Origin: Peptococcaceae bacterium
GTDB lineage: Bacteria > Bacillota > Desulfotomaculia > Desulfotomaculales > Desulfocucumaceae
Direction: 5' to 3'
Assembly (NCBI GenBank): GCA_037444185.1
Contig: JBBIMW010000002.1
Location: forward strand, 73,433 to 105,432
DNA length: 32,000 bases
Below are positions 6,421 to 32,000 of the stretch, one piece after another. Below the pieces are notes generated by a model, which saw nothing but the letters and a program-made list of their open reading frames with translations, searched no databases and was not told where the DNA came from. Numbering within the stretch: position 1 is the first letter of the stretch; every line of letters begins with the position of its first letter. The translations under genes were made by a program, and so were the position numbers.

Positions 6421-6506
6421 AAATCGATGCTCCTCCCCTCTACGGATTTTGTTATCAGTATTTTCCATTCAGAACCTGATTTTACAGAACAGCATTTCCA
6501 ATGCGG

Positions 6507-8365: not shown

Positions 8366-8375
8366 CCTTTTCACC

Positions 8376-9763: not shown

Positions 9764-9785
9764 AATCTGTCCCTCCCCCTGTCCT

Positions 9786-12700: not shown

Positions 12701-12800
12701 CGTAGTAGCCTGACTCGGCCAGATCCAGGGATGCCTGTATGCCGGCTATTCCGGCGCCCAAAATCAGCACGGCCCCGACCTTTTCGGGTGTGTTGGTCAT
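9786..12800 (-). CDS. hdrA: Large HdrA-like flavoprotein, paralog 2 (1004 aa)
   Basis: Collinear with 2107..5145 and clearly paralogous to it. It has the same double GxGxxG, double CVGSR..CSS/Rx[14 protein letters not shown] and C-terminal 2x CxxCxxCxxxCP architecture. Confidence 0.9.
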
Positions 12801-14040: not shown

Positions 14041-14081
14041 GCGCCGGCCCTCCTTAATTCCCTGCTGTGTGCCTTATTCTA

Positions 14082-15023: not shown

Positions 15024-15123
15024 GATTGACATCCTTTCCTGTAATATATAACTTGAAAATGGCTCATTCCGCGCTCCTCACCCCGTCATTCTCACGGGCT
15101 GCGGGCAGCCGGCCCCCGGACAG

Positions 15124-15882: not shown

Positions 15883-15959
15883 ATCAGCACCTTCCTTTCT
15901 CAAAAAAATGGTTTTTCACCCGGAAAACAGCGAAATATAAAGCATGTGCCGCAATGCCC

Positions 15960-17303
15960 TCAGGCCCTCCAGAGCTGTTTTATGAAGGAAGGTATGCCGG
16001 AAGATTCCTGCGGCCCCACCAGTACTTCCCAGCCGGAAAGCTCCCGGATCTTGCCGCTTAAAACAGCCACGCCGCCGGGGATGATAACCCTGCGGTGGTT
16101 CACCCGTTCGGCAATGCCGGAATTGGTCAGCATTTCCGCGACTTTTTCTGGCGTGAACCTGCCGGCGGCCCAGCCGGTCAGCACCGAAGTGCCGTCGGTG
16201 TCCACCGGCAGGATATATCCCGGCACCCGGCTGGCCTCCACATCACCCGCCATACAGAAGTAGGTGAGGGAAAAATTGGTGGTGATGTATACCGGCGCGT
16301 CCGGCCCCGGCTGGCCGATCTCATAAATCCTGGACTCTATGGCAATAGGTTTTTGCGGGTCTGTATAGATATTCAGCCGCAGGGTAATCAGTGACAAAAC
16401 ATCCGCCGGGTCCACCGATTCTATAACTACAATGCCCGCATATTTGGCGATGTAGACACCGGCTTCCACAACGGACTGAAGGGGATCTTCAGCGCTGGCG
16501 AAGGTTATGGTGGGGTATCCGAAGGGTTTGAAGCGTTTTAGGGCCAGCCGGCGGATCTGGGTCTGATCCGCCAGAACAAGGTGCGCATCCCTGGCGCCGG
16601 AATCCAGGAACAATTGCTTGTGTCCCAGGGCCGCCACTTTTTCCACCAGCCCGGCCAGGCTGTCCAGGCTGGTTCCCTTTACCGCCAGAGGCGCTTCGTA
16701 CCTCCTGGCCAGGGCGGTCATGGCATTATAATTGGTTTCATCGGCGCCGCAAAGCAGGGGCTTTCCCGGTCCGGCGATTTCCAGCGCTTTTTCCATGGAT
16801 CCGGGGTCGGCGGTGATCAGTATCAGCGGGTATCCGGTGTTTTCGGCCACCATTTTCACCGTTGCGGCAAATCTGTCCCGATCGTTGGAACAATTGCAGA
16901 CAGCCACCAGGTCTATTCGATATTCCCGGCCCACACGGTCGAAAACCAGCCCATTGATTTTTTCCACCCTGGCGGCCACTTCCTCCATATCCAGGGTGTC
17001 ACAAACGCTGACGGCTATGCCCGTGGGGTTTTCAAAGCGCTTGTCATGGCGGAAGAGAACAGTCTCATTGCCCAAGGCCAGTTGTTTCTCTCCGGCGCCT
17101 ATTTTCACCAGGGCCACCGGCGGGGCGGAAGCGGCGCCCAGGATTTCCCTGGCTTCATCGCCGACATGGGGACACTGATCCAGCCCGGCTTTTCCGGAAA
17201 CCATGGCCATGGCAAATGCCAGACAAGTTGCTTGACCACATTCTTTACAATTGGTTTTCGGCAGCAGCTTAAAAATTTCCAGGCCCGTCAAACCCATTGC
17301 CAT
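15960..17303 (-). CDS. acsC: Corrinoid/Fe-S protein large subunit (CFeSP gamma, AcsC/CdhE family)
   Basis: N-terminal [4Fe-4S] motif NCKECGQATCLAFAMAMVSGKAGLDQCP. Paralogous to 21717..23090. The ATG at 17303 is preceded by AAAGGAGAA, and the track start at 17369 adds 22 non-conserved residues. Confidence 0.9.
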   Translation of the reverse strand: MAMGLTGLEIFKLLPKTNCKECGQATCLAFAMAMVSGKAGLDQCPHVGDEAREILGAASAPPVALVKIGAGEKQLALGNETVLFRHDKRFENPTGIAVSVCDTLDMEEVAARVEKINGLVFDRVGREYRIDLVAVCNCSNDRDRFAATVKMVAENTGYPLILITADPGSMEKALEIAGPGKPLLCGADETNYNAMTALARRYEAPLAVKGTSLDSLAGLVEKVAALGHKQLFLDSGARDAHLVLADQTQIRRLALKRFKPFGYPTITFASAEDPLQSVVEAGVYIAKYAGIVVIESVDPADVLSLITLRLNIYTDPQKPIAIESRIYEIGQPGPDAPVYITTNFSLTYFCMAGDVEASRVPGYILPVDTDGTSVLTGWAAGRFTPEKVAEMLTNSGIAERVNHRRVIIPGGVAVLSGKIRELSGWEVLVGPQESSGIPSFIKQLWRA

Positions 17304-17403
17304 TGTTCTCCTTTCCTGAAGTCTTCCTGGGGAGTGTTGCGAAACCTGTCCCGGGGACGCCGGGTGCATAGCCTTCCGGCCGAAGCCCGGACAAAGGTCC
17401 CGG

Positions 17404-19584
17404 CTAAACCAGTGGGTCCATGGTCAGGGCTGGATGTCCCATGTCCTTTAAAAAGGGCAGTATTTCTTCGCAGGTGACGCCGGTTTTTTCGTCGGCAATC
17501 TGATCTACGAAGCCTTTGCCAAGCCCCCATAACTCTTCCGCAGCCACCTCCAGCAAGGGCCGGAGCTGTTCTTTCAGATCCCGGGGCATCCAGATCAGAC
17601 GTCCCAGGCCTCCGTCAGCCGGGACAAATTTCCGGGAGGCCAGATATGATCTGGCGATACCCATAAAGCCGGGAACCTGCGCCCCGTTGCCAATCATGCC
17701 GGCAATGGCTGAAAAGGTCATGCCGGTGGGATTCATTCCCTGGTACTCACGGTGGACTGCGATGAAGCCGTTGCATTCCGGCACCACGGCCAGTATGCAG
17801 TCCAAACAGCTGGAGGAGGCCATCGGGTGTTCCATCAGGGTGTAAAGATTAACCTTGTCCATGGAGTGCTGTGAATTATTATATACAAACTCGTTGACGG
17901 CCTCCCACTGTCCCTTGATTTCATCTATTGTTCCTTCCTTCGGCACCGGCTGGTTTACGCCGCCGGGGTTGATTTCGCAGGCCGCCCTGGCATCCAGCCA
18001 GCTGACCGCGCCGCACTGGCCCGCGCGTTCAGGAGTTATGACGCACACATGGGCGGGGGCAACCGACTGGCAAAGTGTGCAGGAGTAGAATGTATCGACA
18101 ATTTCGTCCCTGAGGGCCTTTAAATGATCGTCCCGCTTTTTATAGAAACTGCGCGCCAGCTCCCGCATGTCCAAAACCTTTTGTTCATCGGTATATATGG
18201 TTACCTGGACGCGGTCGACTATTGCGGCAAATTCCGCCTTCAGCCTGGCATACAGTATGTTTCCGATGTGCCTCATACGGAAGCCCAGGGCGAAGGCATC
18301 CTTGCTGATCCTCATCCAAAGGGCGTCCCGGTGTCCGGTATGCCATAGTCCTTCACCGTGATTTATATAATAGTGGATACGCCGCTCCAGCACGGACTCA
18401 AAATCTTCCCTCATCCTGCGGCCGTATACATCCACCACTATGCCCAGTGGCATTGCGCCGCCCGGTTCCGCAGTGTCGGCATCGGGCCCGGCCACCGTGA
18501 CCTTCCCGTCCTCCACCTCTTCCGCCTTTGCCATCCGTACCAGTTCGAAGCCGGTGGTGCGTCCTCCGCCGAACTCAACCGCCAGATCGCTCTTCCTTAT
18601 GCTCTCGCCCTCGTAGGCCGGGTCAATCTCTATGGGCGCATCGATCCTGATGTTGGTTATTTTAATCTCCCGCAGCTCCATGCCCAGCTGAATCGCTTTG
18701 TCCAGTCCGGAGCAGGAGACAAACCAGTCTTCAATCCGCCTGTCGCTGGAAAGGGGTTGATCGGTTATGACCGGTATCCCCATACTGAGGGCCCCCATGC
18801 AAAGGGCCGTCTTGAAAGGGTCGTGCTTCCCCAGATAAAGTATAAATGACCGGATCCTCCGGCGCTGAAAATCCAGTTGGCCGTTCCTTTGCCCGGCTTC
18901 AACGCCTCCGATGATCGTCCCCGCCCGCAGAATGAAACTTGGGAATTGTATAGCCCGGCTAAAATCACCCAGGGGGTAGATCATGGAGTCTACGCCCGGA
19001 ATCAGCCCCGGGTCCGGCAATTGATCAATGACTCCGCCACACAGAAAAATCATAAATCCCATCCCGGCAAGCTTATCAATGGCGGCGGCCAGCTCCTTGG
19101 CGTCCCCGGCGCTACCCATAATCAGCACTTCGCCCGGGATGGTCCAGTCCGCCATTTTGATTCCGTACCGGCGTATCACGGAATCTCCCAGGAAACCTTC
19201 CGGGGCGGGAGTGTGCGGCAGACGGCGGACCGCGTCGATGATTTCGGCTGCGTACCATGCGGCCTCTCCGGCAAAAAGATAACCGTCAAGACACCGGGGA
19301 TCCTCCGCAAGTACGCTTTGCAAACGGGTCAAAACCGGTGCGCACTGTCCCAGGGTTTCTATTTTTTCGCCGCTCAAACTGTAGATTACAGGCAGATAAT
19401 AGGCGGTATCCGGATAGCCCACGGGCCGGTCCGCTCCATATTCGCCAATGGCCCGGTTTAAAAGGTGCACCGCCTGACCGACGGCGTCAATGGCGCCTGA
19501 ATAGGCGTCCTTTAATAGACCCTCCGGTTCCTGGCCCGGGATCATTGCCCCTTTTAAAAAGTCAAAATTCACATGCCCGGACAT
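17404..19584 (-). CDS. acsB: Full-length bacterial-type acetyl-CoA synthase (AcsB) homolog with a non-canonical A-cluster nickel motif
   Basis: 726 aa. It has the N-terminal CODH-docking domain (PVGYPDTAYYLPVIY). The [4Fe-4S] ligand set is present (SCTLCQSVAPAHVCVITPERAGQCG). The Cys-Gly-Cys site, however, reads HPMASSSCLDC (17797-17817), whereas the paralog has HTACGCFQ. ATG 19584 is preceded by AAGGGGGAG. Confidence 0.85.
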   Translation of the reverse strand: MSGHVNFDFLKGAMIPGQEPEGLLKDAYSGAIDAVGQAVHLLNRAIGEYGADRPVGYPDTAYYLPVIYSLSGEKIETLGQCAPVLTRLQSVLAEDPRCLDGYLFAGEAAWYAAEIIDAVRRLPHTPAPEGFLGDSVIRRYGIKMADWTIPGEVLIMGSAGDAKELAAAIDKLAGMGFMIFLCGGVIDQLPDPGLIPGVDSMIYPLGDFSRAIQFPSFILRAGTIIGGVEAGQRNGQLDFQRRRIRSFILYLGKHDPFKTALCMGALSMGIPVITDQPLSSDRRIEDWFVSCSGLDKAIQLGMELREIKITNIRIDAPIEIDPAYEGESIRKSDLAVEFGGGRTTGFELVRMAKAEEVEDGKVTVAGPDADTAEPGGAMPLGIVVDVYGRRMREDFESVLERRIHYYINHGEGLWHTGHRDALWMRISKDAFALGFRMRHIGNILYARLKAEFAAIVDRVQVTIYTDEQKVLDMRELARSFYKKRDDHLKALRDEIVDTFYSCTLCQSVAPAHVCVITPERAGQCGAVSWLDARAACEINPGGVNQPVPKEGTIDEIKGQWEAVNEFVYNNSQHSMDKVNLYTLMEHPMASSSCLDCILAVVPECNGFIAVHREYQGMNPTGMTFSAIAGMIGNGAQVPGFMGIARSYLASRKFVPADGGLGRLIWMPRDLKEQLRPLLEVAAEELWGLGKGFVDQIADEKTGVTCEEILPFLKDMGHPALTMDPLV

Positions 19585-19626: not shown

Positions 19627-19670
19627 AAAAAAAAAGCCCTGGCCCTAAGTCCAGGTGAACCCATAGGGCC
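19627..19670 (-). terminator. Probable intrinsic terminator between the two acs/cdh sets
   Basis: Minus-strand GGCCCUA...UAGGGCC (19664-19670 with 19641-19647), with alternative inner CCUGG/CCAGG pairing, followed by GC-rich bases and U9 (19627-19635). It lies 66-109 nt after the acsD-like stop. Confidence 0.55.
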
Positions 19671-19735: not shown

Positions 19736-20659
19736 TCACACTTCAATTTGGCCTGTGGAAAACTGTCCGAGCAGTTTCTTGACCAGTTTCATACTGTCCG
19801 GTGATCCCACGACAGCCAGATTGGCTCCGGCCAAAAACATGGTCATGGCCGTTATGGCTTCCCAGAGTATGCCCTGCTGGTCATTTTCCTTGGCTTCCCT
19901 GGCTCTCCAGCATTCCCTGCCCAGGTTGGCGATGATGGGCATTTTCATCATGTCGTCTCCAAAGAGCACCGCCACCTGCTTAATGCGCTCCATTACCGAA
20001 AAGCTGTAGTCCATGCCATAACCCAGGGCCGACGACAGGGGGTCGATAACAATCCTTTCTTTGGGGAAAAACTTGGACAGTTTGATGTTCAGTTCTTTGG
20101 CCAGGTTTATGTCTATGGGGGTCTGGGCGATTAGCGCATGACCGTATTCCTGGGCCGCTTCCGCAATCTCCTTGTGGTTTTCTTTTAAAACAGGCCCCAA
20201 TAACAGCCCGTCACCGGCGCAAGCCCGGGCGACTTCTCTCAACACCAGGGTGTCTACGTCCTTCTCTCCGGTGCCGTATACAATCATGGGCGCCGGCAGG
20301 GCATCGCCGATTTCCTTGACCTTGGCCGCCAGCGCCGGCGCATCGGGCTCCCCTTCGGCGGCGGAGGCCAGATAAAGGCAAATCAAATCCGCCTTGTACA
20401 CTTCCAGGCATTTTTTAGCCCAGAGGACCGGAGAATTTACAACATCGCCAAAATGGGAGCGCAGGTGATCCGGCCAGGTTTCCGGCGGCGTGGTGTCCCA
20501 TACCTCCAGAGCCATCACCGGCAGCCGGGGCAGATTGCCCTCGAAGTTATGAAAAGGCAGCACTGCTTCCCCGCCAATGGTGGCCGACTTGCCCTCTTTT
20601 CCAATGGTAACTTCTTTAATGGCTCCTTTTGAAGCTTCCAGAAAATCTTTCAGTGGCAT
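19736..20659 (-). CDS. acsD: Corrinoid/Fe-S protein small subunit, second paralog (AcsD/CdhD family)
   Basis: 307 aa, collinear with 14082..15023 (GGEAVLPFHNFEG, ALEVWD, DPLSSALGYG). Confidence 0.85.
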   Translation of the reverse strand: MPLKDFLEASKGAIKEVTIGKEGKSATIGGEAVLPFHNFEGNLPRLPVMALEVWDTTPPETWPDHLRSHFGDVVNSPVLWAKKCLEVYKADLICLYLASAAEGEPDAPALAAKVKEIGDALPAPMIVYGTGEKDVDTLVLREVARACAGDGLLLGPVLKENHKEIAEAAQEYGHALIAQTPIDINLAKELNIKLSKFFPKERIVIDPLSSALGYGMDYSFSVMERIKQVAVLFGDDMMKMPIIANLGRECWRAREAKENDQQGILWEAITAMTMFLAGANLAVVGSPDSMKLVKKLLGQFSTGQIEV

Positions 20660-20678: not shown

Positions 20679-21551
20679 CTAAATCTCCAGCCAAGAATGG
20701 GAATATAACACCCTTCCCATTAAAACATTGACCGTTTTTACCAGGGCGGCCTCGTGGGGGGGCAAATCCGCCGGATTGATTTCCTCGTCCATGGCCCGGT
20801 AGATTAAATCCACATCCGCCTGTTTTTCTCCCCGCATCAGTGCCACCATCTCGCTGTCGAAGCTGTCCACAATGGCCGAATACAAGCCGTGCCTTTGCAG
20901 TATCACCAGTTCTATACGGTTCAATATGCCTCTCAAATGGTGGGGCGCCCCGTTGGACATATTGGACAGCCCCAGGGTTGACTTGGCTCCCGGGGCAATA
21001 TCCGGCAGCATGTCCATGAACTCCATCAGCTCAACCACCTGGGGCTGATCCACCCCTATGGGCATCATAATGGGATCCACCCAGATGTTTTCGTTGTCAA
21101 TTCCAATCTCATTGGCGTAGGCAATGGTCTCCATAATGGCCTCGGCCCTTGATGCCGCATCGGAAGGGATGCCCTTGTCGGTCAATACAGATATTATGAC
21201 ATCACAGTTGTACTTTGCGGCCAGGGGAAGCATATCCCTTTTACTGTCTTCCCGGCCGGAGGCGGAATTAATTAGGGGCCTTTTTTTGCAGACCGCAAGA
21301 CCCGCTTCCATCGCCACGGGGTTCAAGGTATCCAGTGACAGCGGCGAATCCACAACTTCCTGCACAGTTTCCACCAGCCAGCGCATAACGTCAGGATCCT
21401 TTCTTGCCGGCCCGACATTTAAATCAATATAGTCCGCTCCCGCCTCGGCCTGTTTTTTGGCCAAGTCCTGCAGGGGAAGGGGATTGCGCTGCTTAATGGC
21501 CTCGGACACCTCATTGGACAGAATATGAATATTCTCTCCAATTAAAATCAT
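20679..21551 (-). CDS. Divergent pterin-binding methyltransferase (AcsE/MtrH-like), second paralog
   Basis: Contains MILIGENIH, DLNVG, SLDT and GLSNMSNG motifs. The ATG at 21551 has GAGGGGG 8 nt upstream, and the track start at 21587 adds 12 residues without a ribosome-binding site. Confidence 0.8.
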   Translation of the reverse strand: MILIGENIHILSNEVSEAIKQRNPLPLQDLAKKQAEAGADYIDLNVGPARKDPDVMRWLVETVQEVVDSPLSLDTLNPVAMEAGLAVCKKRPLINSASGREDSKRDMLPLAAKYNCDVIISVLTDKGIPSDAASRAEAIMETIAYANEIGIDNENIWVDPIMMPIGVDQPQVVELMEFMDMLPDIAPGAKSTLGLSNMSNGAPHHLRGILNRIELVILQRHGLYSAIVDSFDSEMVALMRGEKQADVDLIYRAMDEEINPADLPPHEAALVKTVNVLMGRVLYSHSWLEI

Positions 21552-21643
21552 ATTACTAACCCCCTCTGTATTTATAGCATCTTCCATTTAACGGCCGCGG
21601 CCGGTGTCCGCCATTTGCGGCGCCGCGCCACGGTATCCCCGGT

Positions 21644-21716: not shown

Positions 21717-23090
21717 TTATGCCGTCTCGGCCTTCCATTTGCTGGTCAGCTTGGTCATAAAGGCGGGCACCTCTTCTGCGTACTTGGGACCAACTATAAT
21801 CTCCCAGCCGGGCAGCTCATCCTCTATTTCGCCCTTGAGCCTGGCCGCCAGACCTGGAATGATCAGCCTCTTTTTCTTCAGCGTGTTTTCCAGACCGCTT
21901 TTCTTGATGAAGGGGCCGATGGTTTCACCGACGAATTTGCCCGTTGACCAGGCCGCCAGAATACACAGTCCGTCTGCCCCCTTTACGCCGACGTAGCCGG
22001 GAACTTTGCTGGACTCCACGCCGTTGGCCACCGCGAAATAGGTCAGGGCGAAGTTGGTGGTAAGGAACACCGGGGACTCTTCCGTCGGCCCGCCGATTTC
22101 ATAAACCTTCTCCTCCACAGCCAGCGGCACCCGCGGATCTGTGTAGATGTTGAGCCGGTGCACCAGAAGGGGGAACAGCGTCTCTTTGTGCAGGTCATTG
22201 AGCACTATAATGGACGCATATTTGACTACCAGGGCGGAAGCCGTCAGCGCCTCCTCCATGGCGTCCTCCGCCTGGAGGGGCAGCAGGGAAATAATCGGAT
22301 ATCCCAGGGGCCTGTAGCTGTGGGTGAGGGCAGCCCGCCTGGCCAAAGTGTAATCCCTAATCGCCTCTTGCATATCCCGGGGTGATGAGTCTATAACAAC
22401 CTCTGTAATGCCGGCGGCTTTCAGTTGGGCGGTCAGCAGTCCGACTTCTTCCAGACCCCGGCCCCTCACCGCCACAGGCACCGCCTTTTCCTTCAGAGCC
22501 GGCAGTGCATCCCCTATATTATCCTTGGTTATGGGATACAGCAGCGGCTTCTGATCGGCGGCCAGATCCCTGGCGGCCATAAGCACCTCCAGGTTTTCAC
22601 TCATCAGTATCATGGGAAGATTTTCCCGGGCCGCCCTGGATACCAGGGACAGGTATCTGTCTCTGTCGCCGCCCTCGAATTTGACGGCAATCATGTCCGC
22701 CCTGAGTTTGATGGCAACCCATTCAAACTGTAATTCTTTTATTTTTTTCAATTTTGCTTCCACAGTCTGGTCGTCGTCTTTGTCGGTTATCAGCACGGCA
22801 AAACCGGGGGGGCGGAAAAATGTCTTTTCATGACGATAGATTACTTCCTCCTCCCCTATGACCAAAGCCCCTTCACCTGTGCCGACGGTCACCAGCCTTA
22901 TGGGCGGCGTAATGGCGTCTATAACCCACTCTTTCACTTCCGGCTCAATTTCCGGACATTTATCCGGGGACACCCCACCGGCCAGCAGTTTCATGGCAAA
23001 GGCCAGACAAGTGGGTAAACCGCACTTTTTACAGTTTTTCTTGCCTCCCCCGGGTAGTTTTTTCTGTATATCGGATGCTTTTACAGGCAT
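21717..23090 (-). CDS. acsC: Corrinoid/Fe-S protein large subunit, second paralog (AcsC/CdhE family)
   Basis: 457 aa with N-terminal NCKKCGLPTCLAFAMKLLAGGVSPDKCP. Collinear with 15960..17303. Confidence 0.9.
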   Translation of the reverse strand: MPVKASDIQKKLPGGGKKNCKKCGLPTCLAFAMKLLAGGVSPDKCPEIEPEVKEWVIDAITPPIRLVTVGTGEGALVIGEEEVIYRHEKTFFRPPGFAVLITDKDDDQTVEAKLKKIKELQFEWVAIKLRADMIAVKFEGGDRDRYLSLVSRAARENLPMILMSENLEVLMAARDLAADQKPLLYPITKDNIGDALPALKEKAVPVAVRGRGLEEVGLLTAQLKAAGITEVVIDSSPRDMQEAIRDYTLARRAALTHSYRPLGYPIISLLPLQAEDAMEEALTASALVVKYASIIVLNDLHKETLFPLLVHRLNIYTDPRVPLAVEEKVYEIGGPTEESPVFLTTNFALTYFAVANGVESSKVPGYVGVKGADGLCILAAWSTGKFVGETIGPFIKKSGLENTLKKKRLIIPGLAARLKGEIEDELPGWEIIVGPKYAEEVPAFMTKLTSKWKAETA

Positions 23091-23107: not shown

Positions 23108-24307
23108 TCAGCCCACCATAAGAGGATGCTCCACTTTCTGGAGAAACTCAACCAGTTCGTCTACATTCTTTACATCCTCTTCGGTGGCGATTTTGCCGTA
23201 CAAGTCCTCGGGAATGGCGTCCTTGACCTCTTCCTTGATGGCTTTGGGCAGCCATACCACCCTTTGCCAGCCTCCGTCGCTGATTATAAATTTTGGCGAC
23301 TTCAGGTAGGATACGGCCATCCCCAGAAAGCCCTCCTGCTGCCGGCCGCCGCTGGCTTCCCCGGCCATATTGGAAAAGCGGTTGCCCATTACGGTGTCCC
23401 CGACAAAGTCCCGGTGAACGATTCCGAAACCATCCACCTCGGGTATATAAAAACAGATGGACTGGAAGCATCCGCAGGCGGTATGAGGATTTTCCAGGGC
23501 GCTGTGCAGGTAGTATACCGAGTTCCGGCCCAGGGACCTTTGTGCCACCACATCGTTGACTCCGCTATAGACATGCTTTTCCGGATCCAGCATCTCGCCT
23601 TTCTCTACAGCGAATATGCCTCCCTCCGGATCGATCTTGTAGGCGGCCCTCCCGTCCAGCCAGCTGATGGCGCCGCACAATGACATCCTCTCAGGGGTGA
23701 TGATGCATACATGGGTGGGGGCAAAGCTCTGACAAAGGACGCAGCCGTAAAATTCCTCCACTTCTTCCTCGGTCATGCCTTTCAGCCTGTCATCCCTGCC
23801 TTGGTAAATGGGTCTGGCGTTCAGTACCTTTTCTTTCACCAGTTCCGGATCAGTTATAAATGTAACCTGCATCTTTTCAATGATGGGCAGTTCGTTGGAA
23901 AAAAGCATAATCAGTATTTGACCGACTTCATTCAGGGAGTTCAGGCCTTTTTGGACGGCTTCCTTGTGGATCCTGAGCCAGATATGATCCCTCTGGGCCA
24001 TATGCCAGAAACCTTCGATATAGTTGCTGTAAACGTGAATGCGGCGTTCGAAAACCGGCTCCATGTCCTTTTCCAGTTCCTCTCCGGACACCTCCACGCT
24101 GATGAATAGCGGGTAAGTCTTCCCCTGCTCCATATCCATAATGTCCGGGCCGATTATCTCCACCTTCTCGTGTTCCACTTCATCCGCCGGCTTGATGGTA
24201 ACCAGCTCGGCCTTGTACTCGCACTGGGGCCCGCCGAATTCCACATAATAATCGGCTTTCCTGATAGCTTCTCCTTCATACTGGGGCCCTACATCTACAG
24301 AAAACAT
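23108..24307 (-). CDS. cdhC: Short acetyl-CoA synthase catalytic subunit lacking the bacterial N-terminal domain (archaeal CdhC-like)
   Basis: 399 aa, starting at the position equivalent to about residue 310 of the 726-aa AcsB. It has a complete A-cluster ligand set (GCVLCQSFAPTHVCIITPERMSLCG and the canonical ACGCFQ). Confidence 0.85.
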   Translation of the reverse strand: MFSVDVGPQYEGEAIRKADYYVEFGGPQCEYKAELVTIKPADEVEHEKVEIIGPDIMDMEQGKTYPLFISVEVSGEELEKDMEPVFERRIHVYSNYIEGFWHMAQRDHIWLRIHKEAVQKGLNSLNEVGQILIMLFSNELPIIEKMQVTFITDPELVKEKVLNARPIYQGRDDRLKGMTEEEVEEFYGCVLCQSFAPTHVCIITPERMSLCGAISWLDGRAAYKIDPEGGIFAVEKGEMLDPEKHVYSGVNDVVAQRSLGRNSVYYLHSALENPHTACGCFQSICFYIPEVDGFGIVHRDFVGDTVMGNRFSNMAGEASGGRQQEGFLGMAVSYLKSPKFIISDGGWQRVVWLPKAIKEEVKDAIPEDLYGKIATEEDVKNVDELVEFLQKVEHPLMVG

Positions 24308-24642
24308 GTTTATTCTGGCTTCCGAAAACTGAACAAATCAGATTCATCCAGCATTCTTTCCCGCCGACCAACGGGAGGCAGTGTCACAGCCCTTGCCCGC
24401 GGGGCCGCCGCACCACCGCCTGACTGCCGCGCCCGCCAAAAACGGGGCGCTGTCTGCAGCCTGGCCGCTGTTTGCGGCAACGGGCCGTCTTTTAGTGTGC
24501 ATCTGCGCCGGCACTTTTACCTCCGCTGACAGTTGTCACCGTGCCACTGCCGGGAAACCAGGCCTGACACCTCCTGTTTTTTTATTTTTTATATCTGCCG
24601 TTGCTTACTCTGCTCACATTTTGTTCGATACGCGGCTTCTAT

Positions 24643-25407: not shown

Positions 25408-26100
25408 TCAGTTTTTGCTTTTTAGGGCTTCCTCCACCGCCTGCTTGGTCATCAGTCCCGCATGATGCATCAATGTGTCGCCAATCTCGGGATCCATAGT
25501 CATGGTGGCCGTGCAGGGATGGGCATGATGTAGAAGCCCGGACTGTTCCACTGCGTCCTTGACGGGTATCCCTGCCAGATTTTTGGCCACGTACCTGGTA
25601 TTCCCGCAGGGCGCCTCCCGCAGAATCTTCACCTCACTCACCTTGTCTTTTTCCACGGTTATCTCCAGCTCCGGCCGGCCGAAGTAACGAACAAAGTCCT
25701 GTATATAGGGGTTTTGGCTGTCCTTTTCCGTGATGGAGCAAAAAACCAGCGGATGAATCATTTCAACTCCTTTGGCGGCCAGTTTCTTTTTAATTTGCCT
25801 GGCCAGCCCCGAAGGAAGATAGGCCTTGTTGTCGATGGGGGCTATAACCGCCCTGGCCCCGGTCATTTTAACCAGGTCCGGGGTCATTTCAGCCACCACC
25901 GGCTCCTCCTGCAGCATCAGCAGCAGATCGCACTGGGGCAAATCAGGGGGCAATAAATCTTCCCAGGAATCATCCACTCCCAGCGATATTTTTGCGGGAA
26001 AAGCATGGTGGTGGATCTCCCATTCCGGCGGGCCGTAGTTTTTCAGCGTTTCGACATACTTGCGGCCGTAGTCACCCTGGATTACCAGAAGAATTCTCAA
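25408..26100 (-). CDS. Small conserved protein of unknown function, tandem copy 2 (DUF166/COG1810-like from memory)
   Basis: A 230-233-aa ORF with conserved PCGNTRYVAKN and HHAHPCTATMTMD motifs. TTG 26100 lies 8 nt after AAGGGGG. The track alternative is GTG 26109. Confidence 0.7.
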   Translation of the reverse strand: MRILLVIQGDYGRKYVETLKNYGPPEWEIHHHAFPAKISLGVDDSWEDLLPPDLPQCDLLLMLQEEPVVAEMTPDLVKMTGARAVIAPIDNKAYLPSGLARQIKKKLAAKGVEMIHPLVFCSITEKDSQNPYIQDFVRYFGRPELEITVEKDKVSEVKILREAPCGNTRYVAKNLAGIPVKDAVEQSGLLHHAHPCTATMTMDPEIGDTLMHHAGLMTKQAVEEALKSKN

Positions 26101-26125
26101 CTGTTTCACCCCCTTTTTTTGTCAG

Positions 26126-27535
26126 TCATGATGTTTGCAGAGGTTTACCCGGGGGTACCCGCCTAAAAGGCTGCCGCGCCGCTTTGGGCACAAGGCCGCC
26201 CACCGGACAGCGCTTCACGCACTCGCGGCAGGACTCACAGCCCAACTCCTCCATGTTTTTATCCTCTTTTGACAATACCACCCTATAATTGTTGACACGC
26301 TTCAACTGAAGGGCATCCGCACCGTTGACCTGTTTGCAGGAGCGGACACATATACCGCATGCCACACAACGGGAGCGGTCAATAAGGAAGTAGGGATTGC
26401 TCTCGTCGATTTCCATTAGAGGCGTTGGGCTGCCAATCATTTCCTGATAGACACCCACGAAATTGGCTACCTCCTGCAGTTTGCAGCGGCCGTTTTTGGA
26501 GCAATTCAAGCAGTCACCATTATGGTTGGCCAACACATTTTTCACCGCTGCCGCCTGTGCTTCCTCCACTTCCGGTGTGTTGGTGCGCACCACTGTTCCT
26601 GGCTTTGCAGGCGCAGTACACGCCGGCACCAGCTTGCCGTTGACCTCCACGGTGCAAACCCGGCAGCCGCCGGAACCTTTAAGCTCGGGGTGATAGCAAA
26701 GATATGGGATGTAAACACCTATTTTCATGGCTGCCTGTAAAACGGTGGAGCCTTCATTTATACTTACCGCCATGTCATCCATGATGATGGTTACTTCCTG
26801 GGCGACTGCGGCCTGGGGTGGCTGAGTCACTGCTTCCGGAGGGGCTTGCAGCTTCTCAGCGATTTTTGCGGGAATAACATCCTGATCCATCTGGCCAAGC
26901 CTCTTGGGCAGAAGGGCCCCCACCGGGCACCGGGCCACGCACTCTCCGCAGGACACGCAATTCGACTCCTGCAGCGGCTTGTCTCCAAGGGTGCTTATTT
27001 TGGTGTCGCGGCCCCGGGAAGCGTAATCAATGGCGCTTATTTGCTGGATTTCCGCGCATGTCCTTACGCAGATGCCGCACAAAATGCAACGGTTATAGTT
27101 TCTTAATATCCACGGGTGGGTTTCATCGATGGGCTTGTGCAACTCAACAGGCCGCAGCTCTTTGCGCTGGACCGGGTCGATCCCTGCAAACCGGGCCACT
27201 TCCTGCAGTTTGCAGTTGAGGTTTTTATCGCAGGCAAGACAGTCCGAATCATGCTCGGCAATGATAATCCCCACAACTGTGCGGCGATACCTGTCCAGGG
27301 CCGGACTCCTGGTTTTGACCACCATTCCTTCGGCAATGGGGGTTCTACAGGAAACAACCATTTTTCCATTCGCCTCCACCATGCATACCCGGCAAAAGCC
27401 GGTGGGCTTTAAGTCGGGATGATGGCAGAGATAGGGTATATAAATGCCATTATCGGAGGCCGCTTCCAAAATGGTTTTTCCCTTTTTGGCGGAAGTTATG
27501 GCCAGACCATCTATGGTAAGATTAACCGCTTCCAT
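26126..27535 (-). CDS. Polyferredoxin made of two tandem NuoG/HydA-N-terminus-like modules ([2Fe-2S] + His-ligated [4Fe-4S] + 2x[4Fe-4S], twice), with no catalytic domain
   Basis: Half A (about aa 1-213) has YLCHHPDLKPTGFCRVC..SC, EHDSDCLACDKNLNC, CILCGICVRTC and CVSCGECVARCP. Half B (about aa 248-469) has YLCYHPELKGSGGCRVC..AC, NHNGDCLNCSKNGRC, CVACGICVRSC and CESCRECVKRCP. The two halves are joined by a Pro/Ala/Gln linker. Confidence 0.8.
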   Translation of the reverse strand: MEAVNLTIDGLAITSAKKGKTILEAASDNGIYIPYLCHHPDLKPTGFCRVCMVEANGKMVVSCRTPIAEGMVVKTRSPALDRYRRTVVGIIIAEHDSDCLACDKNLNCKLQEVARFAGIDPVQRKELRPVELHKPIDETHPWILRNYNRCILCGICVRTCAEIQQISAIDYASRGRDTKISTLGDKPLQESNCVSCGECVARCPVGALLPKRLGQMDQDVIPAKIAEKLQAPPEAVTQPPQAAVAQEVTIIMDDMAVSINEGSTVLQAAMKIGVYIPYLCYHPELKGSGGCRVCTVEVNGKLVPACTAPAKPGTVVRTNTPEVEEAQAAAVKNVLANHNGDCLNCSKNGRCKLQEVANFVGVYQEMIGSPTPLMEIDESNPYFLIDRSRCVACGICVRSCKQVNGADALQLKRVNNYRVVLSKEDKNMEELGCESCRECVKRCPVGGLVPKAARQPFRRVPPGKPLQTS

Positions 27536-27561
27536 TTCCTCTCCTCCTTCCTTTGCGTACG

Positions 27562-29511
27562 TTAACGGCTTCCCGGTCTGCCCCGCTCTAGGACATTAAG
27601 CCTTTCCTGCCCGGTAACCCGTATTATAGCGCGGTATTTGTCAGGACAAGCGTCAATGCACACCCCGCACTTGATGCATTTATCCTGAATGATTTCCGGA
27701 GTCTTTCTCCACCCGCCCACTATTGCCTCGGTGGGGCAGGCGTCCATGCAAAGGCCGCAGGGATCGCAGCACCTGTCAGGATCGATCCAATAGGCGATAA
27801 ATTCTTTGCAATAAAGGGCCGGACAGCTCTTCTCGTGTATATGGGCCTCATATTCGGATTTGAAATAGCGCAGTGTGCTCAGAACCGGGTTGGGGGCGGT
27901 TTGCCCCAGACCGCAGATGGATCCGGCCACCACGGACAATCCTATGTTTTCCAGCAGGGCCAGGTCCGTTGGCTTGCCCCGTCCCTGGGTGATGTCCTCC
28001 AGTATTTTGAGCATCTGGTGGGTTCCTGCGCGGCAGGGCGCACACTGGCCGCACGATTCATTGACTGTGAACTCCAGGAAGTATCTGGCCACATCCACCA
28101 TGCAGGTGCTTTTGTCCATAACCACCATGCCCCCGGAACCCATCATGGCCCCGGCGCTGATCAGTGAGTCGAAATCCACCGGCATGTCCAGCATTTCAAC
28201 CGGCAGGCATCCCCCCGACGGGCCGCCGGTCTGCACCGCCTTGAACTCCTCTCCGGTGGAAATGCCTCCGCCGATGTCGAAAATAATTTCCCTCAGGCTT
28301 ATTCCCATCGGCACTTCAATTAGTCCACTATTTACAATTTTACCGGTCAGGGCAAAAACCGCCGTCCCGGAGTTGTTCTTGGTTCCCATGGAAGCGAACC
28401 AGTCCGGTCCTTTGGTGATAATTTCAGGAATATAGGAGAATGTCTTCACATTGTTCAGCAGGGTGGGCTTGCCCCCAATGCCCTCTTCGGTGGTGCGGGG
28501 CCTGGGCAGTACCTTGGGCATGCCCCGGTTGCCCTCGATGGATTTTACCAGGGCTGTGGACTCGCCGCAAACAAAAGCGCCGGCTCCTTGAAAAATTTCT
28601 ATTTCAAAACTGAAGTCGGTGCCCATTATATTCCGGCCCAGCACATTATACTGTTTGGCCTGGGCGATGGCTATCTTCAGCCGGTCAACCGCCAGCGGGT
28701 ACTCCGCCCGCACATAAATGTACCCGTGGCTGGCGCCGATGGCATAGGCGGCGATGGTCATTCCCTCCAGTACGGAGTGGGGATCCCCTTCCAGAACGGA
28801 ACGGTCCATAAAAGCACCGGGGTCCCCCTCGTCACCATTGCAAACCACATATTTGGGCTCGCCGGCGGCCTTGCGGGCGGAAGCCCATTTTCTCCCGGCG
28901 GGGAATCCGGCGCCGCCCCTGCCACGGATTCCCGAACGGGTGACCATGTCGATTATTTGTTCCGGAGTGTGCTGTGAAAGCGCATTTGCCAGCGCCTGGT
29001 AGCCCCCGATGGCGATATACTCCCGGATGTCTTCGGGGTTTATATGGCCGCAGCGGGACAGTACTATTCTCTGCTGTTTCTTGTAAAAGGGTATTTCCTC
29101 TTCGGTCAGGCATTTGCTGCCGTCCGGATTCTTGTAAAGGAGCCGTTCCACCACCGCGTCCTGCTCCAGTGAAGCGGCAATGATTTCAGCCACATCGCCA
29201 ACCTTCACCAGGGTATAGAAAACGCCCTTCGGCTCGAACCGCACCAGCGGCCCCATTTGGCAGAATCCGTGGCAGCCGCTGATGGCAACGCCGGCCTCTG
29301 TCTCCCCGCCCTCAAAAACAAGCTCCACATCGGCTGTGTGACCCTTCTCCGTCAGCAGCCGCACAAATTCATTGTAAACATCCAAAGCGCCCCCGAGAAC
29401 GCAGCCGGTGCCCGCACAGATCAGAAATCTGGACTTTTGCCGGGCAAAGGCTGTTTCACATGTCTTTTTAATCTCCGCCAAATGGCTTGGGGAGCTTACC
29501 TGCATCATCAT
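27562..29511 (-). CDS. nuoF: NuoF/HydB/HndC-like NAD(H)-binding FMN flavoprotein with N-terminal thioredoxin-like [2Fe-2S] and C-terminal 2x[4Fe-4S] domains
   Basis: Contains GRGGAGFPAGRKW (FMN/NADH site), ESCGQCAPCRAG (N3 cluster), N-terminal CAGTGC..CHGFC, and C-terminal CCDPCGLCMDACP and CIKCGVCIDACP. AAGGAGG precedes three consecutive ATGs (29511, 29508, 29505). Confidence 0.88.
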   Translation of the reverse strand: MMMQVSSPSHLAEIKKTCETAFARQKSRFLICAGTGCVLGGALDVYNEFVRLLTEKGHTADVELVFEGGETEAGVAISGCHGFCQMGPLVRFEPKGVFYTLVKVGDVAEIIAASLEQDAVVERLLYKNPDGSKCLTEEEIPFYKKQQRIVLSRCGHINPEDIREYIAIGGYQALANALSQHTPEQIIDMVTRSGIRGRGGAGFPAGRKWASARKAAGEPKYVVCNGDEGDPGAFMDRSVLEGDPHSVLEGMTIAAYAIGASHGYIYVRAEYPLAVDRLKIAIAQAKQYNVLGRNIMGTDFSFEIEIFQGAGAFVCGESTALVKSIEGNRGMPKVLPRPRTTEEGIGGKPTLLNNVKTFSYIPEIITKGPDWFASMGTKNNSGTAVFALTGKIVNSGLIEVPMGISLREIIFDIGGGISTGEEFKAVQTGGPSGGCLPVEMLDMPVDFDSLISAGAMMGSGGMVVMDKSTCMVDVARYFLEFTVNESCGQCAPCRAGTHQMLKILEDITQGRGKPTDLALLENIGLSVVAGSICGLGQTAPNPVLSTLRYFKSEYEAHIHEKSCPALYCKEFIAYWIDPDRCCDPCGLCMDACPTEAIVGGWRKTPEIIQDKCIKCGVCIDACPDKYRAIIRVTGQERLNVLERGRPGSR

Positions 29512-29548
29512 CTAACCTCCTTATGCCGCCCTTGGCCGGGATACCCTC

Positions 29549-30010
29549 CTAATCCCTGCCCAGCGAGCTCCTTACTTTACCTGGCGCCATCTGACCATAA
29601 ACCTGCTTCCCGACCACCACCACCGGCGCTAAAGCGCACGCGCCCACGCAGGCCACCCGCTCAAGGCTGTATTCATAGTCCTCGGTGGTGCCTCCGTGGC
29701 TTATGCCCAACTCCCGCTCAAAGGCCTCCAGCACCCGGGTGGCGCCTTTCACGTGACAGGCGGTGCCGTAGCAAACCTTTACTTCGTGCTTGCCGCGGCG
29801 TGTGAAATAAAACTGTGTATAAAACGTGGCCACGCCATAGACATGGCTTTCGGGCAAGCGTACAAAACCAGCTATCTCCTTCATTGATTCCTCGGGCAGA
29901 TAGCCAAAGGTCTCCTGGGTATCCTGAAGTATTGGGATCAGTTCGTTGCCGGCTCCCTTATACCTGGAAAATATATTCTTTAGCCCTGCTTCCATTTCTT
30001 CCATAAGCAC
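29549..30010 (-). CDS. nuoE: NuoE/HydC/HndA-like [2Fe-2S] subunit
   Basis: 153 aa with VCYGTACHVKG and ACVGACALAP motifs, directly upstream of the NuoF-like gene. GTG 30010 lies 5 nt after GGGAGGG (alternative ATG 30004). Confidence 0.85.
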   Translation of the reverse strand: MLMEEMEAGLKNIFSRYKGAGNELIPILQDTQETFGYLPEESMKEIAGFVRLPESHVYGVATFYTQFYFTRRGKHEVKVCYGTACHVKGATRVLEAFERELGISHGGTTEDYEYSLERVACVGACALAPVVVVGKQVYGQMAPGKVRSSLGRD

Positions 30011-30081: not shown

Positions 30082-30858
30082 TCAGGAAAAGGGCGCGCCA
30101 CCCGCTTCCCTCGAAATCTTTTCTTTTAGAGCTTCTATTTCAGCAGTAAAGCTTTTTCCGACATTCGAGGCGGCGGCCGGCGCCAGGGCGCTCCCCCAAA
30201 TATCTTCATCGAATCCAATCAGCCCCAGCAGATGATCGGGACCAAAGCTGCCGGTTATAAACTCCCTTTCCCTGTCAAAGCGAATTTTGTTTCCCACAAC
30301 CTTTGTTTTCCTGATTCCCAGTTCGGCGGCCATTTGCATTATGTGGCGGGCGGTATTCACGCTGTTGCGGTTCGGCTCCACCACCACCAGCATCAAATCC
30401 ACCCCCCTGGCGGTGCCCCGGCTGAGATGCTCAATGCCCGCCCCCATATCCATAATGACCATTTCTCCACGATCCAGCAGGAGGGAGGAAACCAGCGCCT
30501 GAAGGAAAGTGTTTTCCCGGCAGTAGCAGTCCGACCCCCCTTTTTTAACCTCTCCCATGCGCAAAAACCTGATGTTTCCGAGGTGATAAGCGTATTGTTC
30601 CGGCACATCGTCCACCCGGGGATTCAGCAGATAAAAGGAACCGCTGCCACTTCTGGCACTGATCAGATCTTTCATCTCAGCTATTGGCTTAAGCCGGGAG
30701 GCAACCTCCTCCGGGATGCCTACGGCCGCAGCCAGACAGGCGTCCGGATCCCCGTCGATGGCGTAGACCAGTTGCTGTGTCCTGGCAAAAGACAGCACCA
30801 GCGCTGCTGCAATGGTCGTTTTGCCCACTCCGCCTTTACCGGAAACAGCCAGTTTCAT
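30082..30858 (-). CDS. cooC: CooC-type nickel-insertion ATPase, second paralog
   Basis: P-loop GKGGVGKTT at residues 7-15 and CxC motif GGSDCYCREN. It sits between the cdhB-like gene and the Nuo-like module. Confidence 0.85.
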   Translation of the reverse strand: MKLAVSGKGGVGKTTIAAALVLSFARTQQLVYAIDGDPDACLAAAVGIPEEVASRLKPIAEMKDLISARSGSGSFYLLNPRVDDVPEQYAYHLGNIRFLRMGEVKKGGSDCYCRENTFLQALVSSLLLDRGEMVIMDMGAGIEHLSRGTARGVDLMLVVVEPNRNSVNTARHIMQMAAELGIRKTKVVGNKIRFDREREFITGSFGPDHLLGLIGFDEDIWGSALAPAAASNVGKSFTAEIEALKEKISREAGGAPFS

Positions 30859-30889: not shown

Positions 30890-31441
30890 TTAAGACAGGG
30901 CCCTTATGATACCCTCAACATATTCTTGGAACCGCTCCACCTTTTGGAATACAGGAGCTGTGTAATCGGCGTGGGGGTGACCGGCGCTGCAGATAACAAA
31001 GGTCTTGAGGTGAGGCGCATAGTGCTTCAGTGCGGACAGGCCGCCGGCCGCCAGATCGGCCCTGATTCCTGTTATTACCACCAGATCGTGGGGCCCCCAG
31101 CCCTTCACCCCGATCCAGTCCTTCATTTTCAGGAAGCGTATAATTTCAATTATATCGTAAACACAGTCTGGTTTTTTGCCGAGCTCCAGCATCTTTTTCT
31201 TTACGTGGGCCGTCACACAGGTGGGAATATTGATTGTCTCCACCAGCTTCAATACATAGTTGAGCAGCGGCCCTTCCTCCATCTGGACGGCCAGCGCCAC
31301 CGGCCCGATAATATAAAGCGGGCTCCTGGCCTGATTGATTATCTCAGCCGCCTCCACCGGATCGGCGATAACCCTCGCGCTTTTCGTGCCCGTAAGAACA
31401 TTTACCGTATAATAAGGCACGGTCATGGTTTCCCTTGGCAT
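30890..31441 (-). CDS. cdhB: CODH/ACS epsilon subunit (archaeal CdhB-like)
   Basis: 183 aa. It is collinear with my recollection of Methanosarcina CdhB (ARSPLYIIGPVAL vs AKRPLFVVGTGVL; INIPTCVT vs NLPIAATG; C-terminal KTFVICSAGHPHADYT vs KSISIGRDYIQNAT). It lies immediately downstream of a Ni-CODH gene. ATG 31441 has GAGGGAGG 9 nt upstream. Confidence 0.72.
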   Translation of the reverse strand: MPRETMTVPYYTVNVLTGTKSARVIADPVEAAEIINQARSPLYIIGPVALAVQMEEGPLLNYVLKLVETINIPTCVTAHVKKKMLELGKKPDCVYDIIEIIRFLKMKDWIGVKGWGPHDLVVITGIRADLAAGGLSALKHYAPHLKTFVICSAGHPHADYTAPVFQKVERFQEYVEGIIRALS

Positions 31442-31482: not shown

Positions 31483-32000
31483 CTACTTCACTGTGGCGGA
31501 AATGGGCACCTTGGTATCATAAGTGCCTATGATGGTGGGCAGGGACAAGGTGGCCTTGGGCTTCCAGCCCACTCCCTTGAGGTAGGCCAGCACCTCTTTT
31601 TTGTAGACCAGGGGGATGTCCCGCTCACTGCGAACAAAATTCTGTAGATCATCGGGAAGGGTGCCCATATATTCTCTGTATATGGAAATATAATGATGCA
31701 GCTTGAGGGCCCGGCCCATGGGGGTGTCATTGCGCCTCAGGCACTGCTTGATAATGGTAATCAGAGCCCTTTCCCTGCTTTCCACCACGATTGCCATATG
31801 CTCCGGCGTAGGCTCCTGGGTGTCCACCAGTTGCTCGGTCCGTCCGTCGATTACCGTCCAGTCGTCCTGTTCCTTCTTGCTTATGAACAGCCTTTTATAT
31901 TTGGCGCCGTGGGGACCAAGTACCAGCGGAATTCCCCACCGGTTGGCCCCGGTGCCTATGGCGAGGGCTTTCTGGGAATACGGGCCCCAAACCACTGCGC
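31483..32000 (-). CDS. cdhA: Ni-CODH catalytic subunit, C-terminal fragment (CdhA-type by context); the gene continues beyond the window
   Basis: The frame is open to the window edge. It carries the conserved CODH C-terminal motif QKALAIGTGANRWGIPLVLGP and is followed by cdhB. Confidence 0.75.
   Translation of the reverse strand, partial: AVVWGPYSQKALAIGTGANRWGIPLVLGPHGAKYKRLFISKKEQDDWTVIDGRTEQLVDTQEPTPEHMAIVVESRERALITIIKQCLRRNDTPMGRALKLHHYISIYREYMGTLPDDLQNFVRSERDIPLVYKKEVLAYLKGVGWKPKATLSLPTIIGTYDTKVPISATVK

Follow-up and report, generated by a model that had tools for sequence, protein, structure and literature searches.

The Wood-Ljungdahl pathway centres on carbon monoxide (CO) dehydrogenase/acetyl-CoA synthase (CODH/ACS), an enzyme for which ferredoxin is regarded as the physiological electron partner. 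A 32,000-nucleotide (nt) stretch of the Peptococcaceae bacterium contig JBBIMW010000002.1 (positions 73,433 to 105,432; hereafter the window) raises the question of what a flavin module of the nicotinamide adenine dinucleotide (NAD(H))-dependent kind is doing inside a CODH/ACS operon. A preliminary description of the window had placed a NuoE-like protein, a NuoF-like protein and an iron-sulphur (Fe-S) carrier between cooC and cdhC, and three open reading frames (ORFs) were found exactly where it had located them. Like all the real genes of the window, they lie on the minus strand:

29549..30010, minus strand: nuoE (bfuC-like), 153 amino acids (aa), one [2Fe-2S] cluster (C1), PF01257; begins 71 nt past cooC
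27562..29511, minus strand: nuoF (bfuB-like), 649 aa, with flavin mononucleotide (FMN) and NAD(H) sites, B1, B5 and B3/B4
26126..27535, minus strand: tandem BfuA-like Fe-S protein, 469 aa, with two sets of Fer2_4, NADH-G_4Fe-4S_3 and 2x[4Fe-4S]

We give roughly an even chance (about 0.5) to the reading that these proteins form an electron module of the BfuCBA type, of the Bfu family defined by Schut et al. 2022 (PMC9304861), which would be dedicated to the CdhAB-CdhC CODH/ACS encoded around it. Judged from sequence, the Cdh enzyme would then probably be wired to NAD(H), and probably coupled to ferredoxin as well. The preliminary description had also proposed that the module belongs with CdhAB/ACS in function. 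This proposal is strongly supported by the HydB/BfuB signature of NuoF, the conserved placement of the genes, a DUF166::NuoE fusion and a separate association of nuoEF with cdh operons, referred to below as type C.

NuoF has the accessory domains of electron-bifurcating subunits

NuoE is a thioredoxin-like [2Fe-2S] protein (PF01257, E 4.6e-48) that passes NCBIfam NF005722 (148 bits against a cut-off of 141), with C80, C85, C121 and C125 as cluster ligands. In NuoF, the FMN/NAD(H) domain Complex1_51K (IPR011538/PF01512) covers residues 190-362 (E 9.3e-45) and the B1 (N3-type) [4Fe-4S] domain NADH_4Fe-4S (IPR019575/PF10589) covers residues 473-557 (E 1.1e-31), with C487, C490, C493 and C533 as ligands. 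The SLBB region (IPR019554, residues 385-434) gave a subthreshold PF10531 match (16.5 bits, threshold 27; E 0.008) and falls inside the full-length alignments to HydB structures. Both of the HydB-type accessory domains that had been ascribed to NuoF were found. The N-terminal thioredoxin-like domain (B5 site, [2Fe-2S] or Zn) has four cysteines, Cys 32, 37, 80 and 84, and a weak 2Fe-2S ferredoxin match was obtained over residues 72-125. The C-terminal 2x[4Fe-4S] domain (B3/B4; Fer4 dicluster, residues 575-625) has two CxxCxxCxxxCP motifs, CDPCGLCMDACP at 582 and CIKCGVCIDACP at 612.

The best matches of NuoF in the PDB were the B subunits of bifurcating enzymes (HydB, NiFe-HydB and NfnB), which aligned over residues 4-626 (770 bits for 7t2r_B and 765 for 8a6t_B, both over residues 4-624; also 7q4v_B, 7p5h_B and 9n5u_B). 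The alignment to T. kivui HydB begins at residue 4. In contrast, non-bifurcating FdsB and Nqo1 aligned to the core only (residues 133-562) at about half the score (~360 bits), and Nqo1/NuoF structures matched at residues 149-562 only, with no counterpart there to the N- and C-terminal extensions. According to Li et al. 2025 (PMC11829005), [B1-FMN-C1] is the bifurcating site, B3/B4 are the route to ferredoxin, and B2-B5 are missing from non-bifurcating homologues.

These features bear on another explanation, in which the system is a plain, non-bifurcating CO:NAD+ oxidoreductase, like an NAD-linked formate dehydrogenase (FDH) or Hox hydrogenase, and the accessory domains of NuoF are uncoupled. 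Direct reduction of NAD+ by CO is thermodynamically feasible (PMC9304861, Table 1). However, NuoF keeps the N-terminal [2Fe-2S] and C-terminal 2x[4Fe-4S] domains that non-bifurcating homologues lack, deletion of B3/B4 abolishes bifurcation in T. kivui HydABC (PMC11829005), and the accessory domains are conserved in both of the independent clades of cdh-linked NuoF described below. We consider an uncoupled oxidoreductase unlikely and infer from the domain composition that the module would bifurcate electrons.

The Fe-S carrier as a doubled BfuA-type subunit

The third gene product had been described as a polyferredoxin with up to eight clusters. The count of eight stands, and the identity as a generic polyferredoxin does not. 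The 469-aa protein contains plant-type [2Fe-2S] and 4Fe-4S ferredoxin-type domains, each present in two copies, which are arranged as follows:

26903..27535, minus strand: module 1 (residues 1-211), with a [2Fe-2S], a His-ligated [4Fe-4S] and 2x[4Fe-4S]
26804..26902, minus strand: Pro/Ala/Gln-rich linker (about residues 212-244), of varying length and sequence in the homologue alignment
26126..26803, minus strand: module 2 (residues 245-455), with the same four cluster motifs, ending in a short C-terminal tail, also conserved, and the stop codon

By its motifs, the protein is a doubled BfuA-type subunit, in which two modules of the NuoG/HoxU/FdhA-N-terminal kind are carried on a flexible linker. 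All of the 32 Cys/His ligands of the eight clusters are invariant (32/32) among seven homologues of 64-100% identity, and the tail, PF(M/R)R(I/V)PPG, is common to the six full-length sequences from type A loci (P0001-P0006; locus types are described below). The N-termini of selenocysteine-containing FdhA (Sec-FdhA) show 51-62% identity to module 1, whose best PDB match is HydA1 (8a6t_A, residues 2-212). Since the identity between modules 1 and 2 is only 43% and module 1 is FdhA-like, the tandem is not a recent internal duplication. No Molybdopterin, Molybdop_Fe4S4 or Molydop_binding domain was detected in the tandem protein with Pfam.

The family is very rare. A word-indexed search of 5.8e9 proteins returned just seven full-length clusters, all from metagenome-assembled genomes (MAGs) of Bacillota/Firmicutes, and the matches that followed were N-terminal pieces of selenocysteine FdhA. 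In an exhaustive HMMER search of 1.84e9 representatives, the tandem family made up one 50%-identity cluster, and no other module-module tandem was present among the other 149 best of 14,594 matches. Sequences matched over two stretches were considered as further tandems and rejected: P0242 contains an entire FdhA-like protein in duplicate, P0268 is the C-terminus of NuoF fused to G, and P0276 is likely an assembly artefact. When genome contigs were scanned, the single-protein query gave no match and the alignment query gave matches.

Conserved placement of the module in cdh operons

The tandem protein is encoded inside the cdh operon, at the same place, in 12 of the 12 related loci examined. 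No locus with the tandem protein had it outside a cdh operon. These loci are either window-like (type A: L001-L005, L090 and L091) or of a second arrangement (type B: L006 and L084-L087), with gene identities of 63-87% across both types and a type B NuoF that is 77-79% identical to the window NuoF. The type B gene order is cdhA-cdhB-cooC-[DUF166::NuoE fusion]-nuoF-[996-aa protein]-cdhC. Here DUF166 is fused to the N-terminus of NuoE. Because DUF166 is a cdh accessory gene, the fusion ties the module to CODH/ACS by a Rosetta-stone argument.

The 996-aa protein of type B consists of module 1, module 2 and a molybdopterin-like (Mo-like) domain. It was first read as a catalytic FDH, which the active-site alignment ruled out: Ser-Arg replaces Sec/Cys-His, Ile replaces a conserved Arg, and there is no Molydop_binding domain. 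The Mo-like domain matches the NuoG profile end to end. It was lost in steps, since type B retains a degenerate form and type A has none. Despite this loss, the tail and every one of the 32 ligands are conserved, which we take as a sign of selection on both modules. Stepwise loss could also mean that the module is the decaying remnant of an inserted FDH operon with no current function, and the missing canonical start codon of DUF166 copy b would fit such decay. However, the reading frames of all three genes are intact, as are the cofactor motifs of NuoF, the cluster ligands show no substitution across homologues diverged to 64% identity, and at least 12 loci, which belong to several species-level lineages, maintain the arrangement. 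We regard a functionless remnant as very improbable.

The FDH ancestry of the module was not foreseen in the preliminary description. The nearest relatives outside cdh operons are Dethiobacter-type nuoE-nuoF-fdhA(Sec)-fdhD operons, to which NuoE and NuoF are 70-72% identical and NuoF by itself 71-72%; identity of NuoF to nuoE-nuoF-fdhA(Sec) operons is 65-72%. The module could thus be an FDH electron module that serves an FdhA encoded elsewhere and lies in the cdh operon solely for co-regulation of the two CO2-reducing steps of the Wood-Ljungdahl pathway. This would agree with its closest relatives, with the resemblance of each half of the tandem protein to FdhA N-termini, with the frequency of NuoEF-FdhA sets in Wood-Ljungdahl clusters and with locus L086, the only one in which a genuine Cys-type FdhA (724 aa, 783 bits on TIGR01591) ends 9 nt upstream of cdhA. 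It agrees poorly with the type A loci, where no fdhA was found in the window or within ~3.7 kb upstream of cdhA, and with L006, where folD is followed directly by cdhA and there is no fdhA. In addition, the Mo-like domain has lost its catalytic residues in type B and is gone in the window, and the type C operons have nuoEF with no FDH gene at the locus. A module working for a distant FdhA is therefore improbable in our view. The preliminary description had raised the prospect that the module occurs with FDH elsewhere and is only incidentally adjacent to cdh here; the link to FDH is real, in the FdhA-linked descent and in the fdhA of L086, and incidental adjacency is contradicted. Its report that no hydrogenase or FDH catalytic subunit lies nearby and that the window encodes no RACo was confirmed when all large ORFs of the window were scanned with Pfam, which gave no hydrogenase, FDH or RACo domains and no other nuo genes.

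Two further observations concern individual type B loci. The FdhA of L086 (1368-3552) has no N-terminal Fe-S module. L084 has a direct repeat of a 904-bp unit upstream of cdhA (324-1889). The unit includes a fragment of Molydop_binding together with a second NuoE-like gene, 41% identical to the operon NuoE, and the repeat may be an assembly artefact.

A second, separate association of nuoEF with cdh operons

We also sampled gene neighbourhoods around DUF166 homologues with 52-66% identity to the window copy. Six of the seven had the gene order (acsE-cdhD-)cdhA-DUF166-cdhB-cdhC-cdhE-nuoE-nuoF. These type C loci, which come from other phyla (L170, L171/L172 from candidate division WS2, L173, L175 from a Deltaproteobacteria MAG, L176/L177 and L178), contain no FDH gene; a single 173-219-aa BfuA-like gene, DUF3786 and metF are optional extras, and in five of the loci the end of cdhE and nuoE share 13-22 nt. 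The type C NuoFs are 625-633 aa long, have the C-terminal 2x[4Fe-4S] domain and are 45-51% identical to the window NuoF.

A neighbour-joining (NJ) tree of NuoF was built with 200 bootstrap replicates. Types A and B grouped with FDH-linked NuoFs (L009, L088, L092 and L093) in 200/200 replicates and formed a clade of their own in 197/200, type C formed a separate clade in 187/200, and monophyly of all cdh-linked NuoFs was recovered in 0/200. According to this tree, BfuB-type nuoEF entered, or was replaced in, cdh operons at least twice. Two separate recruitments would be hard to explain otherwise than by a real functional coupling.

The type C loci also bear on the idea, put forward in the preliminary description, that the module replaces RACo by feeding low-potential electrons for reactivation of the Co(II) corrinoid protein or, as a variant, for reductive activation of the A-cluster. 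The window lacks RACo, DUF166, which is needed for CODH/ACS in M. maripaludis, is fused to NuoE in type B, and the type C nuoEF directly follows the corrinoid-protein gene cdhE, all of which would suit such a role. However, L175 encodes a full RACo (Fer2, RACo_linker, Raco_middle and RACo_C_ter) in the same cluster as cdh-nuoE-nuoF-G, and this coexistence disfavours a substitute. Moreover, ATPase and RACo domains are lacking in all three proteins, a machine of three subunits and 14 clusters is large for occasional repair, and RACo could be encoded elsewhere in the same genome. The case for a RACo substitute is weakened accordingly, and we think it quite unlikely.

In many metagenome loci (L145, L146, L148, L151, L161, L164, L165 and L155), a NuoG-like gene and nuoE-nuoF directly adjoin metV-metF, and in L155 they also adjoin acsB and acsC. 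BfuBC-type modules are thus attached to several different Wood-Ljungdahl enzymes.

A proposed electron path and its energetics

In the reading that we favour, a BfuCBA-type module dedicated to CODH/ACS, electrons from the C-cluster of CdhA would reach the B and D clusters, then the CdhA E/F clusters, and would continue along the eight-cluster wire that the tandem protein provides. Here module 1 would sit on NuoF in the way that the N-terminus of HydA docks on HydB, and module 2, which once led into a NuoG-like domain, would dock on CdhA at the end of its flexible tether. The wire would terminate at the [B1-FMN-C1] site of NuoF/NuoE, where hydride would be exchanged with NAD(H) and low-potential electrons would pass to and from ferredoxin via B3/B4. 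The net reaction would be CO (or acetyl-CoA cleavage) + NAD+ + Fd_ox <-> CO2 + NADH + Fd_red, where Fd_ox and Fd_red are oxidised and reduced ferredoxin. In the reverse direction, NADH would stand in for part of the reduced ferredoxin needed in acetyl-CoA synthesis. We likewise infer that the module would associate physically with CdhA and use NAD(H) as substrate and ferredoxin as co-substrate.

Within CODH/ACS, CO is a channelled intermediate of low activity that is consumed exergonically. Its effective potential could therefore lie between those of NAD and ferredoxin, in the Bfu regime (PMC9304861, Table 1). Schut et al. 2022 point out that bifurcation with CO is sensible only at very low CO, which raises the effective CO potential (PMC9304861).

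Several points weigh against this reading. At its standard potential of -520 mV (PMC9304861), CO reduces both NAD+ and ferredoxin without bifurcation, so the energetic rationale hinges on the assumed low CO activity. The module clearly descends, by its sequence, from the NuoEF-FdhA of formate dehydrogenases, and such sets occur commonly across Wood-Ljungdahl gene clusters as a whole; given this descent and commonness, co-regulation could have arisen with no physical coupling. The sample of locus contexts is small and was picked by similarity to the window's own proteins. Finally, the AlphaFold2 (AF2) model of the tandem protein, built from 41 sequences, is poor (predicted local distance difference test (pLDDT) 64, predicted template modelling score (pTM) 0.41, and pLDDT <50 at residues 214-242, in a linker that the model leaves disordered) and yields no geometry, so that distances between the clusters of the two modules are not measurable from it.

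A broader proposal, which we advance only tentatively and consider rather doubtful, is that bacterial archaeal-type (hybrid) CODH/ACS is generally a Bfu-type bifurcating/confurcating enzyme and that the window lineage swapped its nuoEF for an FDH-derived set. The channelled CO2/CO half-reaction, pulled by acetyl-CoA formation, would then be the mid-potential third substrate. NADH and reduced ferredoxin would jointly drive acetyl-CoA synthesis, and cleavage would reduce NAD+ and ferredoxin together. The doubled BfuA of the window lineage would be a tethered, two-armed wire. An ancestor of the type B kind with an adjacent FdhA, as in L086, may have put FDH and CODH on one flavin, which would have brought both CO2 reductions of the Wood-Ljungdahl pathway into a single complex.

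Comparison with known systems

Solved members of the BfuABC/HydABC group are the HydABC of T. kivui and A. woodii (8a6t, 7q4v), the NiFe-HydABCSL of A. mobile (7t2r), the HydABC of T. maritima (7p5h) and NfnABC/Stn (9n5u, 8oh5). The window NuoF shares with them FMN, B1, the Cys pair of the B2 site, B3/B4 and a thioredoxin-like domain at the N-terminus; NuoE is the counterpart of BfuC and each tandem module that of the N-terminal domain of BfuA, and the full-length PDB matches score 633-770 bits. In contrast to these members, the BfuA module of the window is doubled, it neither contains nor adjoins a hydrogenase, FDH, NADPH or other catalytic domain, and the sole catalytic partner encoded nearby is CdhAB/ACS.

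The closest precedent is "Codh-Bfu", which Schut et al. 2022 (PMC9304861) predicted from four CooS-type clusters, including those of Acetohalobium arabaticum and Clostridium cellulovorans, and which is uncharacterised. Both systems have a BfuBC module genetically interleaved with a Ni-CODH, and in both CO is the proposed third substrate beside NAD and ferredoxin. However, Codh-Bfu comprises a monofunctional CooS-type CODH with extra Fe-S subunits between bfuB and bfuA, whereas the partner in the window is the archaeal-type CdhA/CdhB of a complete CODH/ACS, both encoded upstream of bfuC. The window module also lies between cooC and cdhC, and its NuoF is of FDH-linked descent. On gene content and order, the window system resembles Codh-Bfu in its proposed working but is not a member.

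The closest relatives in sequence are the NuoEF-FdhA FDHs (Fdh-Bfu, FdhF2-HylABC and the non-bifurcating FdsABG, 6tg9/6vw7). Unlike these, the window has no catalytic domain with molybdenum- or tungsten-bis(pyranopterin guanine dinucleotide) (Mo/W-bisPGD), and the link to FDH is one of NuoF ancestry, not of function. The hybrid cdhE-nuoE-nuoF operons, including that of Unc8, share a BfuB-type NuoF and a NuoE with cdhA, DUF166, cdhB, cdhC and cdhE. They differ in that nuoEF follows cdhE, BfuA is missing or is a single protein of 173-219 aa, and NuoF belongs to another clade. The N-module of respiratory complex I (NuoEFG) is not matched: nuoE and nuoF stand in the window as the only nuo genes, and NuoF has the accessory Fe-S domains. 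RACo is not matched either, as none of the Pfam families that compose it, Fer2, RACo_linker, Raco_middle and RACo_C_ter (ASKHA ATPase), matched an ORF of the window.

In our literature search, nuoEF as part of a Cdh-type CODH/ACS was not described, save for one sentence in Suzuki et al. 2018 (PMC6305446). It notes nuoEF near the hybrid CODH/ACS cluster of NPL-UPA2 'Unc8', states that it 'may serve to regenerate NADH' and mentions possibly shared regulation. To this the window adds a Cdh-type CODH/ACS that has a Bfu-family module attached, whose doubled BfuA is very rare. If our reading is correct, CODH/ACS would join the third reactions of the Bfu family, whose list on the CO side now consists of one uncharacterised CooS example. 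Bacterial Cdh-type enzymes of a large group (Bacillota, candidate division WS2/NPL-UPA2, Desulfobacterota-like MAGs and others, often from subsurface or alkaline habitats) would each come with a flavin module for NAD(H) and ferredoxin. How much ferredoxin and ATP acetogenesis and acetate oxidation cost or yield in these organisms would then need recalculating.

The hybrid CODH/ACS operon and DUF166

The genes around the module are the following:

31483..31995, minus strand: cdhA (CODH alpha subunit), 3' part only, truncated where the window ends (TIGR00314 positions 614-761, E 6.5e-56)
30890..31441, minus strand: cdhB, the epsilon subunit specific to archaeal-type CODH (PF02552 CO_dh, E 8e-21; TIGR00315, E 3.4e-27)
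30082..30858, minus strand: cooC-like P-loop Ni-insertion ATPase (PF01656, CbiA/MinD family)
25408..26109, minus strand: DUF166 copy a (PF02593, E 3e-52), beginning 16 nt past the tandem gene
24643..~25362, minus strand: DUF166 copy b, frame open from 25362, first canonical start at 25212
23108..24307, minus strand: cdhC, the short, archaeal-type ACS subunit (TIGR00316, 602 bits against a cut-off of 356)
21717..23090, minus strand: cdhE/acsC-like large corrinoid Fe-S protein subunit (PF03599 CdhD family, E 2e-86, and a PF04060 FeS domain)
20679..21587, minus strand: acsE-like pterin-binding methyltransferase (PF00809, E 3.7e-18)
19736..20659, minus strand: cdhD/acsD-like small corrinoid Fe-S protein subunit (PF03599, E 6e-38), the final gene of the hybrid operon
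19638..19655, minus strand: terminator-like hairpin and T-run, a consensus match only, in the 151-nt gap ahead of a bacterial-type acsB cluster

Pfam and NCBIfam matches identify this set (CdhA, CdhB, a short CdhC, the corrinoid-protein subunits and AcsE) as an archaeal-type/hybrid CODH/ACS, the bacterial hybrid type described by Suzuki et al. 2018 (PMC6305446). The full-length cdhA is available from L001, which is 98-100% identical to the window. It encodes 766 aa that score 1050 bits on TIGR00314 (cut-off 781) and merely 85 bits on the CooS model TIGR01702, and both E/F-cluster Cys motifs are kept (residues 388-400 and 427-437). The position of cooC after cdhB is kept in all type A and type B loci. 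From cdhA through DUF166 copy a, the gaps between genes are 16-71 nt, and the GC content of the module genes is the same as that of their neighbours. The preliminary description had named internal promoters or terminators as a possible break between the module and the cdh genes. Promoter-like and terminator-like sites in the region were no commoner than in shuffled sequence, and since their counts do not exceed those of the shuffles, the scan neither splits the operon nor proves it.

The gene layout given in the preliminary description had overlooked the two DUF166 genes between the Fe-S protein and cdhC. The copies are 85-86% identical, and relatives have one or two. Copy b is homologous to copy a along its full length, including the stretch upstream of the called GTG; it has a CTG at the position of the copy a start, and use of the GTG at 25212 would cut ~44 residues. 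DUF166 is required for CODH/ACS-dependent autotrophy in Methanococcus maripaludis (10.1101/2024.03.05.583561). The AF2 model of copy a (25408-26109) has a pLDDT of 93 and gave no significant fold match in the PDB. Across 42 homologues there is little or no variation at Cys 121, 165 and 196 or in a His-His-x-His-Pro-Cys motif, which suggests a metal or redox site, and the fusion to NuoE hints at the role of DUF166.

Other features of the window

A 335-nt non-coding gap (24308-24642) separates DUF166 copy b from cdhC. It contains an A-rich stretch and could harbour an internal promoter or regulatory element for cdhC and the later genes. An Rfam scan of the window, this gap included, gave no match.

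Past the hairpin lies a second, bacterial-type set, acsB (726 aa)-acsC-cooC/acsF-acsD-acsE (13246-19584, minus strand). The N-terminal domain of AcsB normally contacts AcsA. There is no acsA/cooS CODH subunit gene in the window, yet this AcsB retains the domain. Type B locus L086 lacks such a second acs set. Beyond it is an Hdr/MvhD/MetFV cluster (50-12800, minus strand), in which two paralogous HdrA-like proteins of ~1000 aa (2107-5145 and 9786-12800) are encoded alongside FrhB-like, Fer4_22, PyrK-like NAD-binding, HdrBC-like CCG, MvhD, MetV and MetF proteins. It looks like a MetFV-Hdr-type methylene-tetrahydrofolate reductase cluster with a doubled HdrA.

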